Shown in pieces: positions 9,734 to 64,000 of a stretch of DNA of 64,000 nucleotides. The number at the start of each line of letters is the position of its first letter. The first letter of the stretch is position 1. Position numbers and translations under genes: made by a program. Source of the stretch: Dehalococcoidia bacterium UBA6627 (GTDB lineage Bacteria > Chloroflexota > Dehalococcoidia > UBA2979); assembly GCA_002455955.1 (NCBI GenBank), contig DKLZ01000075.1:9837-73836 (forward strand), in the 5' to 3' direction. Under the pieces are notes generated by a model. The model made no database searches and was not told the DNA's origin. It saw nothing but the letters and a program-made list of their open reading frames with translations.

Positions 9734-10519
9734 CTAATCGCGCTTCCTGCCCAGAGGCAAGAATGATGTATACCAGCCAACTGTGCTCTCCAGCTTTGCG
9801 GACTGGATCGCACCAGCCGGGTCGACATGCTTCGGACAAACTTCGCTGCACTCACCCACAAACGTGCAGTCCCATATGCCATCATCTGACCAAATCAGTG
9901 GATAGCGCTCTGCATTCCCCTCGTCTCGTGAGTCAGCGTTATAGCGTTGAGCAAGCGCAAGAGCAGCCGGTCCAACAAACTCCTCTTCGTGCTGGTAAAC
10001 AGGACAGGCGGAGTAACAGAGCATGCAGTTAATGCACATGCTGAATTGCTTAAAATCCGCAAGTTGTCCTGGAGATTGTTTGTATTCACCTTCCGATAAT
10101 GGAGTCTCTTCCTCACGGATTATCCATGGCTTGACCGCACTTAACTTCCCGATGAAGTCTTTGAGGTCGACAACTAAATCTCGTTCGACGGGGAAACCGG
10201 CGAGTGGTTCAACACGAACCGGACCAGGCAGGTAGTCACGAAGAAACGCAGCACACGTAAGCACAGGGACACCATTGACCATCATCCCGCAAGATCCGCA
10301 TACACCCATACGGCAAGACCAGCGATAAGTTAGCGAGCCATCGTCCTGATCTTTTATGTGATTAAGTGCATCGAGAACAACCCAATCCGAGCGATAAGGG
10401 ACCTCAAAGCGCTCGTACTGTGGCTCTTCATCGTGTTCTGGATGGTAGCGAGCTACATCGATCATAATCGTCTCTGGCATCGTTGCTGCTGTAGTCAATG
10501 AAACCTCCGGCATACCCAA
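9734..10519 (-). CDS. frdB: Fumarate reductase/succinate dehydrogenase iron-sulfur subunit
   Basis: 2Fe-2S motif [15 protein letters not shown]. 4Fe-4S/3Fe-4S motifs [12 protein letters not shown] and [13 protein letters not shown]. Confidence 0.9.
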
Positions 10520-38107: not shown

Positions 38108-38869
38108 ATGTCGATAAGTGCTAACGAAGACCACGTTACAGGAAACGCTCTAGATTCCGAAGCAACTCGTCTCGGAATACAGCTCTCGCAGCGTGATAGC
38201 GACGCTTTTAATCGCTACTTCGAACTGCTAAGAGAAGGAACCAGACGTGCTGGCCTGACCTCTCTCAGAACTCGAGACCAGATCGAACGACGCCTCTTCG
38301 GTGAATCACTCGCACTCCTCGTTGGCTTGCGAAACGCCAACCTAGTACCCAGTAACAGACCCTTCCTAGTAGCTGATATCGGTAGCGGTGGTGGCTTTCC
38401 CGGTATACCGATGCGAATCCTAGAGCCGACTATGCAACTCGCCTTAATTGAGGCTCAACAGCGCCGTTGTGCGTTCCTCGAAAGTGTTACTGAACAACTC
38501 AGCCTCAACAATGTTCGGGTACTACACACACGTGCAGAGGACGCCGGCCGTGACATTAAGCTCCGTGCCTCGTTTGACCTTGTAGTCGCCCGCGCCGTCG
38601 CACCACTCGACATTCTTGTGGAATACGCGCTACCTCTTCTGCAAGTCGGTGGCATACTCGCGACACCTAAGGGAAGTAACGCATCGAAAGAGCTGACGGA
38701 GGCTCAGATCGCGATCGAGGAACTCGGTGGTGTCGCCCTCGACCCGATCCCACTCTCGCTCCCCGAGCAAGCTCCATCTCAAAATGTGTTGGTGATACGT
38801 CGTCAAGGGAAATTGAATGACCGCTACCCTCGCCGGGCCGGAATTCCTTCGAAGCGACGACTCCGATAA
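38108..38869 (+). CDS. rsmG: 16S rRNA (guanine527-N7)-methyltransferase RsmG (GidB)
   Basis: SAM motif VADIGSGGGFPGIPM. Length and overall pattern typical. Confidence 0.85.
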   Translation: MSISANEDHVTGNALDSEATRLGIQLSQRDSDAFNRYFELLREGTRRAGLTSLRTRDQIERRLFGESLALLVGLRNANLVPSNRPFLVADIGSGGGFPGIPMRILEPTMQLALIEAQQRRCAFLESVTEQLSLNNVRVLHTRAEDAGRDIKLRASFDLVVARAVAPLDILVEYALPLLQVGGILATPKGSNASKELTEAQIAIEELGGVALDPIPLSLPEQAPSQNVLVIRRQGKLNDRYPRRAGIPSKRRLR

Positions 38870-39271
38870 TTCTCTCACTGTATTCGACTCAAAGAATCAA
38901 ATAGGACCAACCAAGGACGGACGACCGAATAACTAACCAATTCATCAAGATAATCAGTTGATACCTGCCCTCCTCGAGGAAATCGTCAACCATACGAAAG
39001 AAGCGTTATACGACAGGGCGTGCTGGCGAATGGATTCCTCGAACGGAGCTCGTGCATCTTCGCGACAATGAACAACTCGTTATGCGTGCGCGTTTGGAAT
39101 GGCTCATCAACCAAGAACAGTCCGATCAGCTTGGCGCCAATTTGGAACTAACGGCATAGCTTCGTAAAGCAGCAATCCCACGGGGCTTAGATAGAAATCT
39201 CACTGAATCCAAGACCAGCATTAATGAACATCGCCGTAATGTTCTCAATATTTCATTACGTATGTTTTTTG

Positions 39272-39299
39272 ATGATCATTAGTAGATACTAATGATCAT
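39272..39299. promoter_or_regulatory. Perfect 28-bp AT-rich palindrome (13-bp arms, 2-bp spacer), operator-like
   Basis: ATGATCATTAGTA-GA-TACTAATGATCAT read directly. Lies 87 nt upstream of the Yip1-like ATG. Confidence 0.5.
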
Positions 39300-39383
39300 T
39301 TAGCAGAAATCCGCTACTATCTCCCTTGTCGGTCGGGCAGCCGGCACTGTTTGAAGTCCTTGGCGGGTATCTCGGAGGCCATA

Positions 39384-39464
39384 CGATGGCTGTTCTGACC
39401 GTCCGCCGAATCCGCAGACTCGGCTTATTGGATTTTTCGGTTTTCGATGAGGTCGGAACCGATC
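39384..39464 (+). repeat. Inverted repeat copy A (81 nt), includes the ATG and first 26 codons of the Yip1-like gene
   Basis: Hand alignment with the reverse complement of 42274-42353: first 54 nt identical, then one T5/T4 indel and two substitutions. Confidence 0.9.
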
Positions 39465-40009
39465 CACGTGCCACCGTTCCATCATTGATGATCGCAAGTG
39501 GATCAATGATGATGCTGAGCGTCGGTGGTTGGCTTTGGTGGATAACAAGCGGCCTAGGTGACAGTAGCGCGGTTCTACTGAAAAGCGTTGTCATTGGATC
39601 GCTTTTCTCTATTGCGCTTTGGCTAGCGTGGCTAGTCGTCGTTTACGTGATCCTGCAGCGTGTCACACAATCCGATGTCAACGTCGAGCGCCTTGTACGC
39701 GCTGCAGGCATGGCGACCACACCTCTCATCATTGGCCTATTGATGGTTATCCCAAGCATCTCTTTCGGGATAGGCATTGTCGCAATCGGCACATGGGTAA
39801 TAACAACGCATGCGGCCATAGAACGCGCTACCGGAATAAGCGGTCGACCAGTCGTGATCGCAAACGGAGCCGGTTTTGCAGTCTGGGCCCTCGCCATGTC
39901 GGTACTCGCTACCAGCACCAACCAGATCGCGCCAGGTCCATTCCTAGCAGAATCAATCTGGGAAGCAGTAACCACCTACGACTACGCGCAAATCGTAATC
40001 AATTCCTAA
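39386..40009 (+). CDS. Yip1-domain-like integral membrane protein
   Basis: Start at MAVLTVRR is preceded by GGAGG. About 5 TM segments. N-terminal LLDFSVFDEVGTDP pattern resembles bacterial YIP1-family proteins (tentative). Confidence 0.5.
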   Translation: MAVLTVRRIRRLGLLDFSVFDEVGTDPRATVPSLMIASGSMMMLSVGGWLWWITSGLGDSSAVLLKSVVIGSLFSIALWLAWLVVVYVILQRVTQSDVNVERLVRAAGMATTPLIIGLLMVIPSISFGIGIVAIGTWVITTHAAIERATGISGRPVVIANGAGFAVWALAMSVLATSTNQIAPGPFLAESIWEAVTTYDYAQIVINS

Positions 40010-40024
40010 CTGCCAACTAGCCGA

Positions 40025-40064
40025 CCTCGGTTCCAGCGTTATCTCCCCAGCGCTGGAACCGAGG
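40025..40064 (+). terminator. Perfect 14-bp stem hairpin downstream of the Yip1-like gene (no U-tract)
   Basis: CCTCGGTTCCAGCG-12 nt loop-CGCTGGAACCGAGG, 15 nt after the stop codon. Confidence 0.4.
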
Positions 40065-40237
40065 CAACACACTTCCTGGATATCAACTCGCACTTGACCG
40101 TCTCGCTTCTGGAACCGAACTCCTCACCGGCCCCAGAAGCATCTGGATCATGGATATCTGTCAATGAGGCAAATGAAGAGTAACGAGTGCTATGCGCTAG
40201 ACCGGTCACAGAAACGCTGTCTACACTCAAACTTCGC

Positions 40238-40313
40238 GGGCCTGTAGCTCAGCTGGGAGAGCGCCACACTGGCAGTGTGGAGGTCAGGGGTTCGAGCCCC
40301 CTCAGGTCCACCA
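40238..40313 (+). tRNA. tRNA-Ala (anticodon GGC), CCA encoded
   Basis: Manual cloverleaf: acceptor GGGCCTG/CAGGTCC with G3:U70, anticodon arm CCACA-CTGGCAG-TGTGG, T arm AGGGG-TTCGAGC-CCCCT. Confidence 0.9.
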
Positions 40314-40380
40314 CTCAAAACCTTCTGTTCCGCTAGTGCCAAAGTTGAACACCCTCAGCAGGGCTATGTTGTCCTCTGGG

Positions 40381-41241
40381 TTAGGATCGGGCACCTGTCC
40401 CAAAATCATCACAGGTGTGAAACGATGGTGACCACTCTGCGAGGCGCTTTGCCATCGCCTGAATCGCAGCCTCATTGTTATCGACTAGGATACAGTTACG
40501 TTCATTCAACGCTGCCGCCTCCCCTGTCGTACCGGATCCAGCGAAGAAGTCGGCAACGATATCCCCAGGGTTAGAGTGCACACGCACAATCTGGTTCAAA
40601 ATCTGAATCGGCTTTTGAGTCGGATACCCAGTTCGTTCCTTACTGTTCGTCGGAACGATTGTCTGCCACCACACGTCGGTGGGGGTCTTGCCTCGCAGCG
40701 CCTTCTCTTTAGTTACAAGATCAGGGGCCATGTAAGGAATGCGATCGATGTCATCGTAACGAAACGTGTACCGATCGGGATCCTTCGTGTACCAAAGAAT
40801 CGTGTCATGCTTTGCTGGCCACCGGCGCTTCGAACGACCACCAAAATCATATGACCAGATGATCTCGTTTTTGAAGCAATCCCGTCCAAACAGGTGGTCA
40901 AGAAGAACTTTTGCGTAATGTGATTCATGCTGGTCAAGATGGAGAAGGAGCGAACCATCTGCAGTTAGAACACGTCGGAACTCGACTAACCGTGGCTCAA
41001 GAAAACCTATGAAATCATCGAATACGTCATCGAAAGATGTGGACCCAAGTTTCTCGGTACGGTAGCTACTCCCCCCGAAACCTACGCGATCCCCATCTTG
41101 ATCGCGCACAGTCCTGAGTGTAGTCAGATTCTGCTGCCGACCGGTATTGAAGGGTGGATCGACATAAATTAGATTGATAGAACCTGATTCGAATGTCTGG
41201 ATGACTTCGAGGTTGTCTCCGAAGTGAATATCGATCGTCAT
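40381..41241 (-). CDS. Beta-class DNA methyltransferase (N6-adenine/N4-cytosine family, PF01555-like), orphan
   Basis: Motif IV IYVDPPFNTG lies N-terminal to motif I DFFAGSGTTGEAA. No adjacent endonuclease candidate. Confidence 0.85.
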   Translation of the reverse strand: MTIDIHFGDNLEVIQTFESGSINLIYVDPPFNTGRQQNLTTLRTVRDQDGDRVGFGGSSYRTEKLGSTSFDDVFDDFIGFLEPRLVEFRRVLTADGSLLLHLDQHESHYAKVLLDHLFGRDCFKNEIIWSYDFGGRSKRRWPAKHDTILWYTKDPDRYTFRYDDIDRIPYMAPDLVTKEKALRGKTPTDVWWQTIVPTNSKERTGYPTQKPIQILNQIVRVHSNPGDIVADFFAGSGTTGEAAALNERNCILVDNNEAAIQAMAKRLAEWSPSFHTCDDFGTGARS

Positions 41242-41480
41242 TGGACCTCTGATAGTGCAGTTTACGGAGTGCAGCGTCTAAGTAGTTGGGGAACGGTGGT
41301 CATTCAGCAACTATGTGGCCTCACCCCGAAAGTGGCGAACCATAACTGAGCGTGTCACGGATCGTACCGCGCTGTCTTCTAGGCGACGTTCAAATGGCTC
41401 ACTACATTCAAAATGGTGTAGACCTTTCAGGATCTACGAGTAGAATCTTGCTTACTTATTCCATATATCCGAGGAGCAAT

Positions 41481-41783
41481 ATGTCCCAGTACATGGTAGT
41501 GCACGCCCTAAAGATCGATGCAGAAGCATTCGCCGAGGTGATGCAGTCAGATGACATGGGCGAATTCGCAAAAGCTATGGCTACCGGCCAAACGCCGGCT
41601 AAGTGCGTAAAAAGTTGGAACCCGATTCCACATGGCAACACAGACACTTTCATATGCCTGTGGGAAGCTGACAACTCAGACGACATCACAGCTACTCTGG
41701 GCGAAGAAATGCTAGCTATGCTGACATGCGAGCCTATGCAAGTAGACGAAATTGACTGGGCTGAGGTGGCAGCGGCTTCGTAA
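41481..41783 (+). CDS. Small (100 aa) alpha+beta protein, DUF3303/DUF4242-like (tentative)
   Basis: GAGGAG lies 5 nt upstream of the ATG. Pattern YMVVHAL...KCVKSWNPI...TFICLWEADNSDDI...CEPMQV. Confidence 0.5.
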   Translation: MSQYMVVHALKIDAEAFAEVMQSDDMGEFAKAMATGQTPAKCVKSWNPIPHGNTDTFICLWEADNSDDITATLGEEMLAMLTCEPMQVDEIDWAEVAAAS

Positions 41784-41855
41784 AATGAACTCGCGTGTTG
41801 AAGTGCGGCGCTGACCAGACCTGGAAGTCATAGAACGATAAGTAGGCGTATAAGC

Positions 41856-42275
41856 ATGGCTATAAAAGATTTTCTTTCAGACATTCGCAACGCGGCACTT
41901 GCTAACGTAGTGATTGTTGTCTTTCACATCTGGATCGCTATCGAGATCGAAGGACTAGATTTCCTCGTCATTGTCCTTCCAGTTGGCGCTCTGATTGCTG
42001 CGGCATATTTCATCAAGGGCAAGATGGGAGCCGCTTTACTTGCTATTCCAACACTAGGTTATCTACTTATTGCACCAGAGCTAATTGAGGGAATAATCAC
42101 TGGGGAATTGGGGCCGGATGACGAAGATGTCGATATTGGATGGGGCCTAGACCGGTACCTACTCGCCCCGTTCTGGTTATTCACTACTCTGCTAAACATC
42201 ATGTCGATCATTGCTGAGGTACGAGGAACTAGCAAATACTCACAGCAGAGCAGTGCAAATTCATCAGAGAGTTGA
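41856..42275 (+). CDS. Hypothetical small membrane protein (139 aa, 3-4 TM)
   Basis: Hydrophobic segments. Lower GC than surroundings. The stop codon abuts repeat copy B. Confidence 0.5.
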   Translation: MAIKDFLSDIRNAALANVVIVVFHIWIAIEIEGLDFLVIVLPVGALIAAAYFIKGKMGAALLAIPTLGYLLIAPELIEGIITGELGPDDEDVDIGWGLDRYLLAPFWLFTTLLNIMSIIAEVRGTSKYSQQSSANSSES

Positions 42276-42353
42276 TCTGTTCCGAGCTCATCGAAAACCG
42301 AAAATCCAATAAGCCGAGTCTGCGGATTCGGCGGACGGTCAGAACAGCCATCG
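42274..42353 (-). repeat. Inverted repeat copy B (80 nt), frameshifted copy of the Yip1-like gene start
   Basis: Its reverse complement matches 39384-39464 at 78 of 81 aligned positions. It lacks the SD present upstream of copy A. Confidence 0.9.
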
Positions 42354-42621
42354 CTGAAGAAGTTATCGACGAGCACTAGCACTTACTGGAATATCCGTGT
42401 GTCAGTTCGGAGTTGGATCCGAATTAAGATCGCCGCCAAACACCCAACGAACCTGAGCGCCTGAACCCAGTCTTAACTGCCAATGGAGCGGCAACATCGC
42501 GGGCAACTTTCGTCACTTTGCCTAGAACTGTTTTTGATTCGTCGGACATCCGCTCTTCAAGCATCAGACCTCTAATCTTTGAGGCGCAGACGCTTGGCAA
42601 CCTGTTAGGGCGCACCAACAT

Positions 42622-42654
42622 GTGATCTGGATCGCCTGTACCAATCCAGATCAC
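42622..42654 (-). terminator. Perfect 11-bp stem hairpin downstream of the lipoprotein gene (no U-tract)
   Basis: GTGATCTGGAT-11 nt loop-ATCCAGATCAC, 65 nt downstream of the minus-strand stop at 42719. Confidence 0.3.
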
Positions 42655-42718
42655 GGTCGAAATTCAGCTCCATAGCTGAAAACTCTCTATGTCTCGATAA
42701 GTGCCAGAAAACACGAAA

Positions 42719-43096
42719 CTACCGACATATGTCTCCTTGGATCGTAAATCCTTGAAGCACATCCTCGGTGTTCAGGCGGAGAATACCAGTAGAAGCTTTC
42801 ACGGCCCCGGCAGGCATGATACGACCCTCCGGCCCAGTCCAATTAATTACCCAGCTCTTTGTGGTGGACGCGGCATACTCTCCGGAAAGACTGCCTTCTA
42901 CCTTTAAGCCATTGGCACAAGTCTCTTGGATAAAGATATCGATCGCCTCTTGCTCACTCATATCCGGTGCCGGGTGAGTGAAAAACGCATTAGGAGTTGG
43001 TTCAGCAGGTGTTTCTTCACCGGAACAGGCAATACTAGAAACGAGTGTTAATCCCAGCATTAATACAAAAGCTCTCCACAAATTTTTCCCTACCAC
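42719..43096 (-). CDS. Hypothetical lipoprotein
   Basis: Lipobox-like LVSSIAC after a K/R-containing n-region if GTG 43096 is used. The track ORF extends to 43177. Start uncertain. Confidence 0.45.
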   Translation of the reverse strand: MVGKNLWRAFVLMLGLTLVSSIACSGEETPAEPTPNAFFTHPAPDMSEQEAIDIFIQETCANGLKVEGSLSGEYAASTTKSWVINWTGPEGRIMPAGAVKASTGILRLNTEDVLQGFTIQGDICR

Positions 43097-43389
43097 GTTA
43101 TCCGATCGAATATCAAAAATGGCTGCTAAGGGAAATGTCATTAGGCACCTCTCGTCAAAATTTTGAAAAGTTAACAATAACCAGAGGTGATTCTATTCGA
43201 AGTGCCCTGACTCTGTGCAATACATCTCCCCAAAATCTTAACCACCCGCGAGCAGATTTTCATTCTCAGATCCGGACACACGTAATATTTTGGATTGCTC
43301 GCTAGTCAGCGGACGTGCACGATTGATCAAAAGAAGCACCTCTAGACAACTAGCAAATCACGACCAGTCCGTGCACTAGGAGACGTGTT

Positions 43390-63153: not shown

Positions 63154-63531
63154 TCAGAGCTCCTCTTCGTGCGTCAGAAGGAGATCATAGTCTACGAACT
63201 GAATCCTGTGCTCTTCATTTCAAGCTTATGGTACTAGCTTGCCGAATTCTCACGGCAAGCATCGATATCGAAAATCCGAAAGAAAAATTGGATAATTTTG
63301 TTTCCGCAAATGAACTCTTTACTATCCAATGAAATCTAATCTCGGTTGTACTTGGTGCGCCGAGGCGAAGTGTCAGTTACGCTATGAAGGCTGGTCAATG
63401 ATGATTAGCGTCTCTCAGTCCGCTTCTGGTTGTGTCATCCGAACAACACGTCGAGCAACTGAGCATCCCCCGGTTGCCGCGTGCGCGCGGCGTATGTGCC
63501 GGCTCTAGTCCGGCGTGGAGTTCAAGTTTTT

Positions 63532-63933
63532 ATGTCCCAGAGAATCTACGTAGGGAACCTTCCCTATTCATCCTCGGAGGAGGAAGTCGAGCAATTGTTC
63601 GGTCAGTACGGCGAGGTTATCTCGTGCGCGCTGCCGACCGACCGCGAGACCGGCCGCCCGCGCGGCTTTGGCTTTGTCGAAATGTCGAATGAAGATGCAA
63701 CGAAAGCTATTGAAGCTCTTGACGGTACCGATTTCGGTGGTCGATCACTAGCAGTAAGTGAAGCTCGTCCCCGTCAGGACCGCGGCCCGCGTGGCGGCGG
63801 TGGTGGCGGCGGCTACGGCGGCGGCGGCGGCGGCTACGGCGGCGGCGGCGGTGGCGGTGGCTACGGCGGTGGTGGCGGCGGCTACGGCGGCGGCGGCGGC
63901 GGCTACGGTGGCGGACGCGACCGACGCTACTAA
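63532..63933 (+). CDS. RRM-type RNA-binding protein with glycine/tyrosine-rich C-terminal tail
   Basis: RNP-2 IYVGNLPY, RNP-1 RGFGFVEM, tail (G5-8 Y)x5. Start at MSQRIYV. Confidence 0.85.
   Translation: MSQRIYVGNLPYSSSEEEVEQLFGQYGEVISCALPTDRETGRPRGFGFVEMSNEDATKAIEALDGTDFGGRSLAVSEARPRQDRGPRGGGGGGGYGGGGGGYGGGGGGGGYGGGGGGYGGGGGGYGGGRDRRY
63793..63915 (+). repeat. Imperfect tandem GGY-codon repeat (period 21-27 nt) encoding the Gly/Tyr tail
   Basis: Repeated (GGC/GGT)n-TAC units read directly. Lies inside the CDS. Confidence 0.9.
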
Positions 63934-64000
63934 AAAGCAATATCAGGATACCTGAAACCGGAGCGCGGCATTCGCCGCCTATCGGATGGCATCGGCGTTC

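Follow-up and report, generated by a model that had tools for sequence, protein, structure and literature searches.

Does a near-identical inverted repeat that copies the start of a gene mark a DNA segment switched by inversion, or is it the residue of a past rearrangement? This question is raised by a locus in Dehalococcoidia bacterium UBA6627, a member of the Chloroflexota. We analyzed a stretch of 64,000 nucleotides from its contig DKLZ01000075.1, hereafter called the window. Here, the 5' end of a gene for a Yip1-like membrane protein (arm A) recurs downstream as an inverted, partial copy (arm B). The arms bracket about 2.8 kb (39468-42270) holding the body of the Yip1-like gene, a tRNA-Ala(GGC) gene, a DNA methyltransferase gene, and two small genes. 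The original prediction explained the repeat either by a very recent duplication and inversion or by ongoing recombination between the arms, which would turn the Yip1-like gene ON and OFF. We consider it moderately probable that arm B is a species-specific, non-functional, and decaying rearrangement scar at a tRNA-Ala hotspot, permitting sporadic homologous inversion at most. With similar confidence, we hold that the locus is not a programmed switch.

Structure of the inverted repeat

Arm A (39384-39467, forward strand) is where the Yip1-like gene natively begins; with the ATG at 39386, it extends from -2 to +82. Arm B (42271-42353, reverse strand) is an inverted and frameshifted partial copy. 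Local alignment pairs the 84 nt of arm A with the reverse complement of the 83 nt of arm B from end to end. The outer 53 nt are identical in both (39384-39436 and the reverse complement of 42301-42353). Inward of this core lie an indel, in which arm B has a run of four T (T4) where arm A has five (T5), and three substitutions. The near-identity originally described is real, with two corrections: the exact core measures 53 rather than 54 nt, and there are three substitutions rather than two (the earlier count stopped at 81 nt).

The 53-mer occurs in two copies in the window at up to three mismatches and in none of 100 dinucleotide shuffles. A glycine-rich coding microsatellite aside, the arms are the only dispersed repeat of at least 30 nt in the 64 kb. 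No homology was detected past the arm ends: alignments of the inner and of the outer flanks score no higher than those of shuffled sequences, which bears out the earlier statement that they are unrelated. Both homology boundaries are therefore sharp.

The sequence context of the two copies is as had been described. Arm A starts 2 nt ahead of the ATG, is in frame, and has a GGAGG motif 8 nt upstream. Arm B has neither a Shine-Dalgarno sequence nor a leader and is frameshifted. It is located in the spacer between convergent open reading frames (ORFs), namely p139 on one side and p76/p140 on the other, and overlaps the TGA stop codon of p139, an ORF of 139 amino acids (aa). This stop (42270-42275) is itself created by the third arm B substitution; an A-type base there would let the ORF continue for 35 codons to reach 174 aa. 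An exact look-up of the 40-aa ORF within arm B returned no match. RNA folding gave z-scores of 0.0 for the leader of the Yip1-like gene and -1.3 for the arm B region, neither of them informative.

Ancestral context of the Yip1-like gene

The Yip1-like gene (39386-40009, forward strand) encodes a protein of 207 aa with a weak match to the Pfam family PF04893, below the gathering score. There are 94 homologues in the Dehalococcoidia/Chloroflexota, and the relatives are all metagenome-assembled genomes. The gene order GreA(-), RsmG(+), (GNAT/DinB_2), Yip1(+) is retained at over 20 loci, the most distant with a protein identity of 29%. The comparison of synteny proposed with the original prediction gave the window order of RsmG and Yip1 in the relatives, and arm B is missing from the other species examined.

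The gene is preceded by a leader and promoter region (39256-39385, forward strand) that combines a palindrome, a TACnnT box, a small hairpin, and the GGAGG motif. The palindrome is perfect (GATCATTAGT-N4-ACTAATGATC, 39274-39297) and unique in the window. It is found once, about 100 nt 5' of the ATG, in every relative that has a Yip1 protein of at least 62% identity and for which the upstream region was recovered. Across species with Yip1 proteins 62-82% identical, the leader of about 110 nt aligns with a mean column identity of 78%. An Rfam scan of 38800-42800 at E ≤ 1 matched the tRNA only, leaving the leader without a match. This region is probably an undescribed repressor operator and 5' untranslated region (UTR) element in the marine Dehalococcoidia relatives examined.

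The hairpin of the leader is GTCGG-N7-CCGAC, with A/G variation that preserves pairing, and the leader contains the sequence GGCGGGCAnCTCGGAGG. Its counterparts lie at approximately 9871-10000 in the loci L063, L064, and L066, 5871-6000 in L030, 816-945 in L027, 707-836 in L028, and 2122-2251 in L068 (designations beginning with L refer to retrieved contigs and loci).

On the basis of RsmG-Yip1 synteny and leader conservation, arm A is the native, functional gene start, and the window orientation is ancestral for the Yip1-like gene as well as predominant. The converse arrangement, with the Yip1-like gene beside the right flank as in the contig L010 discussed below, was considered as the ancestral state and is ruled out by the same deep synteny and leader conservation. 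As the original prediction argued, inversion would detach the body of the gene from this deeply conserved leader and its Shine-Dalgarno sequence.

Between RsmG and the leader, the window has a remnant of a DinB_2 gene (38911-39158, forward strand). The gene is intact between RsmG and Yip1 in the sister species L068 and in L063-L066. BLAST places a 232-nt internal deletion at about 39100 of the window, where positions 1738-1969 of L068 are missing.

Age and decay of the second arm

Arm B is specific to this species, yet it occurs in every strain clade, as represented by the window, L001/L002, and L058/L059 types. No inverted copy of the locus's own Yip1 start was found in the loci fetched from relatives (L021, L023, L027, L030-L032, L035-L037, L039, L063-L066). 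At positions 65 and 83, arm B carries the derived states that distinguish arm A of the window lineage from L068 and L063/L064. The duplication thus postdates the divergence from L068, which is about 90% identical at the nucleotide level.

Since then, the two arms have evolved independently, with no sign of recent homogenization. They differ by 3.6-4.8%. All B copies share the T4 run and two of the substitutions, and an extra mutation at 42278 is found in the window clade only. Likewise, the arm A core of L001 and L004 has undergone a C>T change, and their own arm B lacks it. The idea of a very recent duplication is difficult to reconcile with an arm that is present in all strains, has diverged to this extent, and carries private mutations that were not homogenized.

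Orientation of the segment across assemblies

A census was made of contigs of this species (≥98% nucleotide identity), and their junctions were classified by unique probes and BLAST. It covers the contigs retrieved; the index also reports five Yip1-bearing and 11 p139-bearing contigs outside it. The window orientation was found in 21 of the 23 junction-spanning contigs. Eleven independent contigs join the left flank to arm A and the Yip1-like gene, with sources that include JGI Ga0310344_10000148, LUOE20 scaffold_32, TARA scaffold_202, and both MEGAHIT and SPAdes contigs. Ten contigs join p139 to arm B and the right flank. The reciprocal junction expected from inversion, between the left flank and the reverse complement of p139, was found in none of the contigs.

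Both arms are read through by three contigs of 58-202 kb, and the same architecture recurs in at least ten independent assemblies from different projects and assemblers. Together, these long contigs and independent assemblies exclude an assembly artefact, the alternative that the original prediction had kept in view. What could be cited in favor of a misassembly of arm B or its junctions is that short-read contigs often break inside the arms, as do L014, L044, L048, L061, and L062 (L044, L061, and L062 are Logan contigs). Such breaks are uninformative on orientation because a 53-nt exact repeat breaks graphs built with small k. We regard the probability of such an artefact as negligible.

A rearrangement-prone locus and a possible origin of the repeat

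The sequence 3' of the Yip1-like gene is highly variable among relatives. Synteny collapses there in all relatives, and the gene sets are unrelated. In L064 (10801-12050), a pair of IS3-family transposase genes directly follows Yip1. In L063 (14462-14845), a 71-aa phage-integrase fragment adjoins the tRNA-Ala(GGC) gene. This tRNA gene lies 4-8 kb downstream of Yip1 in L063 and L064, which represent the closest other species. The 3' side of the tRNA gene is thus a variable, integration-prone hotspot, and the locus a recurrent site of integration and rearrangement. In the window, the 3' end of the tRNA gene (40290-40313) is not repeated directly, and no integrase was found among the ORFs scanned. 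In L020, an apparent loss of the 5' half of the tRNA gene proved to be only a run of N in the scaffold.

We propose that arm B would have arisen in two steps. In the first, an inversion with staggered breaks at the gene start would have duplicated 84 bp at both ends of the inverted segment. The resulting state would have resembled L010, with an intact but leaderless Yip1-like gene against the right flank and an orphan arm behind the leader. In the second step, homologous recombination between the new arms would have re-inverted the segment, so that the Yip1-like gene regained its leader and arm B was left stranded. A single staggered-break step is insufficient because the context of arm A is ancestral, and the two-step path is the shortest that we could construct.

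As the arms share 53 identical bases, the 2.8-kb segment could be flipped again from time to time by RecA-type recombination. The intact Yip1 ORF would then be placed behind ...GATAACTTCTTCAGCG, without the conserved leader or Shine-Dalgarno sequence, and a frameshifted stub of 40 codons would take its place behind the native leader. The tRNA and methyltransferase genes would be reversed. Such a flip would be sporadic structural variation rather than a demonstrated enzyme-driven phase switch.

Evidence for inversion and its weight

Several observations weigh against the view of arm B as a decaying scar. First, two contigs, L010 and L047, join the right flank to the body of the Yip1-like gene, as inversion predicts. 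They come from two samples and two strain backgrounds, and their crossovers fall at two different points. The sample that yielded L047 also yielded L005, a contig of the same strain in the reference orientation. If L047 is real, both orientations would occur in one strain background within one sample, a frequency too high for sporadic homologous recombination. Second, the three to four differences between the arms all fall in the inner 31 nt and none in the outer 53 nt. Under uniform neutral decay, such clustering has a probability of (31/84)^3 to (31/84)^4, or about 0.05-0.02. The intactness of the outer core is a suggestive but weak hint of conversion or exchange between the arms, or of selection on the core. 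Third, the bracketed Yip1-like and tRNA-Ala genes lie, with respect to RsmG, as they do in the outgroups and are not inverted, so that a re-inversion must be postulated; we infer the two-step origin rather than observe it. Finally, none of the relative loci contains p100 or p139, the two small genes of the segment, or p140 of the right flank, and the ancestral neighbor of the right flank cannot be reconstructed.

The first two points would fit the alternative that the segment is actively invertible. In that case, 39468-42270 would be flipped by a trans-acting recombinase or by homologous exchange at high frequency; the Yip1-like gene would be ON with its leader and OFF, or differently regulated, without it. 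Differences confined to the inner arms are what would remain if crossovers took place in the outer core, and the predicted junction is carried by contigs of different samples and strain backgrounds. In addition, there is precedent for partial-intergenic invertons overlapping the start of a gene (PMC10028968). We nevertheless consider an active switch unlikely, in view of the quality of the two contigs and of what is missing around them.

L010 (ERZ2438040, assembled with SPAdes) is a contig of 1822 nt with a k-mer coverage of 2.07. It consists of the reverse complement of the right flank (42753-42354), an arm that is A-type throughout, the whole Yip1-like gene, the hairpin that follows it, and the tRNA-Ala gene. 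From the T-arm of the tRNA onward, it continues with a compensated T-stem and unrelated DNA of 40% GC, and it has a Nextera adapter at its end. That the contig changes to unrelated sequence inside a tRNA gene, at only about two-fold k-mer coverage and with an adapter attached, counts against its use as evidence for inversion. It may plausibly be a chimeric path through the shared 53-mer, given gaps at low k and coverage of about 2x.

The terminal part of L010 (1255-1822) shows further features. The T-stem is changed from AGGGG/CCCCT to ATGGG/CCCAT, with an additional A67G change; a hairpin overlapping the acceptor end comes next. The 40%-GC DNA encodes a protein with a signal peptide and a repeated VVDTSNENNP motif. 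This part may be either an island integrated at the 3' half of the tRNA gene or a chimera.

L047 (TARA_SAMEA2622822 scaffold_44750) is 99.9% identical to the window across 3.4 kb of the right flank. Its arm is a mosaic, comprising the core with the B-type T4 run and then three A-type bases; 21 nt of the Yip1 body follow, and there the contig ends. It stops 104 nt past the start of the arm. A plausible explanation is that a right-flank contig was extended by a single arm A read of about 101 nt, which we take to be the read length, in which the homopolymer was miscalled or the allele was T4. Taking both contigs together, the chance that at least one of them represents a real molecule seems to us evenly balanced.

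As for the original proposal of ongoing recombination and an ON/OFF switch, its predicted junction is thus seen in two contigs, but the predominance of the reference orientation (21/23) and the lack of any reciprocal junction speak against it. The reciprocal junction would create an ORF of 97 aa, antisense to p139, for which no homologue was found in a set of 5.8 billion proteins. Moreover, no recombinase, integrase, or transposase was identified by Pfam among the 39 of 55 gene-sized ORFs of the 64-kb window that were scanned, or among precomputed calls for 29.4-50 kb, in agreement with the earlier remark that none is encoded in the window. The repeat is also missing in every other species examined, and its arms lack concerted evolution. 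A rearrangement scar accommodates these results better than a switch does.

Possible antisense function of the second arm

Arm B may also be considered as part of a trans-antisense module. In this scheme, readthrough from p100 and p139 would produce a transcript with a 3' UTR complementary to Yip1 from -2 to +51, such that expression of p139 would repress Yip1 translation. The stop codon of p139 marks where arm B starts, and the sole hairpin (42404-42423) is situated past the arm. No terminator-like site was found between the p139 stop and the end of arm B; transcripts reading through from p100 and p139 would therefore include 53 nt perfectly complementary to the start-codon region of Yip1, which would also account for the intact outer core. 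There is a promoter-like site ahead of p100 (41419-41446). The intact 53 nt are exactly those that cover the start codon, in contrast to the decaying distal part, and the C>T change in the arm A core of L001 and L004 would still allow a G-U pair. However, the element is found in a single species, the strain set has too few single-nucleotide polymorphisms to reveal constraint, and the distribution of differences between the arms is only marginally non-random. We therefore judge an antisense module very improbable. In broader terms, it is improbable that the arms are a working element of any of these kinds, whether a switch thrown by an unlinked invertase or a 3'-UTR antisense, with the 53-nt core under selection. 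The preferred explanation remains a scar without function.

Genes between and beside the arms

The contents of the bracketed segment are as first listed: the body of the Yip1-like gene, a hairpin, tRNA-Ala(GGC), a beta-class methyltransferase, and two genes of lower GC content. The hairpin (40025-40064, forward strand) lies 3' of the Yip1 stop codon and has a perfect 14-bp stem and a 12-nt loop. It is a probable terminator, though it has no T tract, and it is kept in L010. The tRNA-Ala(GGC) gene (40238-40313, forward strand), matched by Rfam, is 100% identical in L063, L064, and L066, where the Yip1 proteins are about 80% identical.

The methyltransferase gene (40381-41241, reverse strand) encodes a beta-class N6/N4 DNA methyltransferase (PF01555, 4e-45; PADLOC MTase_II, 3e-133) with no recognizable restriction partner. 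Its family includes thousands of Chloroflexota proteins at 65-70% identity. In a closed relative (L070 10001-10855, ERZ28763693 contig_7), a 70%-identical methyltransferase gene is flanked by argG and a ubiE-like gene and lies 160 kb from the Yip1 locus. A homologue of 87% identity (L072) has yet another gene context. The location in the arginine cluster and the breadth of the family suggest that the methyltransferase may be a conserved housekeeping enzyme, possibly CcrM-like, rather than a component of a restriction-modification system. The arginine cluster of L070/L071 has the order argJ-argB-...-argG-methyltransferase-ubiE-like-argH-rpe.

The two genes of lower GC content (about 47-48%) are p100 (41481-41783, forward strand) and p139 (41856-42275, forward strand). 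The 100-aa ORF p100 is called as a gene in all assemblies and has no Pfam, NCBIfam, PADLOC, or PHROG match. p139 encodes a small membrane protein with 20 homologues, and its last codon and TGA stop lie within arm B. The possibility that p139 was truncated by a breakpoint was ruled out, as it is full length relative to these homologues, with a tail of 9 aa. In the right flank, p76 (42424-42654, reverse strand) is an uncertain ORF of 76 aa that reads toward arm B and was called, partially, in one assembly (L049). The first certain gene is p140 (42719-43141, reverse strand), which is called in all assemblies and has no family match.

None of p100, p139, p76, and p140 matches a restriction-enzyme, defense, or phage family. 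p100 and p139 were not found beside the methyltransferase homologues examined. A mobile restriction-modification or defense cassette composed of the methyltransferase, p100, and p139 was considered and ruled out, given that the methyltransferase family is Chloroflexota-wide and its contexts unrelated. Contrary to the word cassette used earlier, the segment is not a coherent mobile unit. A sign change in GC skew at 40600-42400 was not used, being too weak and confounded by gene orientation. Elsewhere in the window, an RRM_1 RNA-binding gene (63463-63933) has a C-terminal tail rich in glycine and tyrosine, which is specified by about 12 imperfect GGC repeats of 9-12 nt (63774-63940).

Comparison with known systems

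The repeats of invertons are usually short, and an invertase is often encoded nearby. In known cases, site-specific invertases bring about the flip, and an inverton is called only if both orientations are backed by reads (Chanin et al., PMC10028968). The locus resembles partial-intergenic invertons, of the class detected by PhaseFinder and PhaVa, in that the repeats bracket a gene start and inversion would uncouple the body of the gene from its promoter, leader, and Shine-Dalgarno sequence. In contrast to invertons, the arms here are 84 bp long, decaying, and confined to a single species; there is no invertase nearby, and the second orientation is represented by two weak contigs. Unlike shufflon-type systems, the locus has no in-frame alternative cassette, as the predicted products of inversion are a frameshifted stub of 40 aa and an ORF of 97 aa without homologues. 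If inversion does occur, a conserved gene for a membrane protein would be under a natural switch in an abundant, hard-to-culture ocean lineage. If the repeat is instead a scar, it provides a caution for pipelines that predict invertons, in that a near-perfect inverted repeat of 84 bp can be a fossil.

RecA-mediated inversion between rRNA operons or copies of insertion sequences depends on homology and on no specific enzyme, and is seen as rare strain polymorphism. The repeats involved are kilobases long. For RecA, an identical core of 53 nt is close to the shortest length that allows efficient exchange; exchange events at the present locus would therefore be rare.

The locus also invites comparison with islands that target tRNA genes. 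It differs from them in that the window has no integrase, direct repeat of the tRNA 3' end, or mobile cassette, and in that the inverted repeat derives from the Yip1-like gene. It is similar in that variable DNA starts at the 3' side of tRNA-Ala(GGC), with an integrase fragment in L063 and an alternative 3' half of the tRNA in L010.

To our knowledge, breakpoint-associated inverted duplications are well documented in flies and have seldom been noted in prokaryotes. If arm B is indeed a scar, the locus would represent a clean bacterial case of an inverted micro-duplication at a breakpoint. In flies, inversions with staggered breaks leave inverted duplicates of unique sequence, ranging from 46 bp to 1.9 kb, at the inversion ends (Ranz et al. 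2007, PMC1885836). A single event of this kind yields the arrangement A-d-rc(B)-rc(d)-C (PMC1885836). This model was described in Drosophila, and we propose it here for a bacterium. Like the staggered-break duplications, the repeat described here consists of ancestrally single-copy, coding sequence with sharp boundaries, of which one copy has become degenerate.

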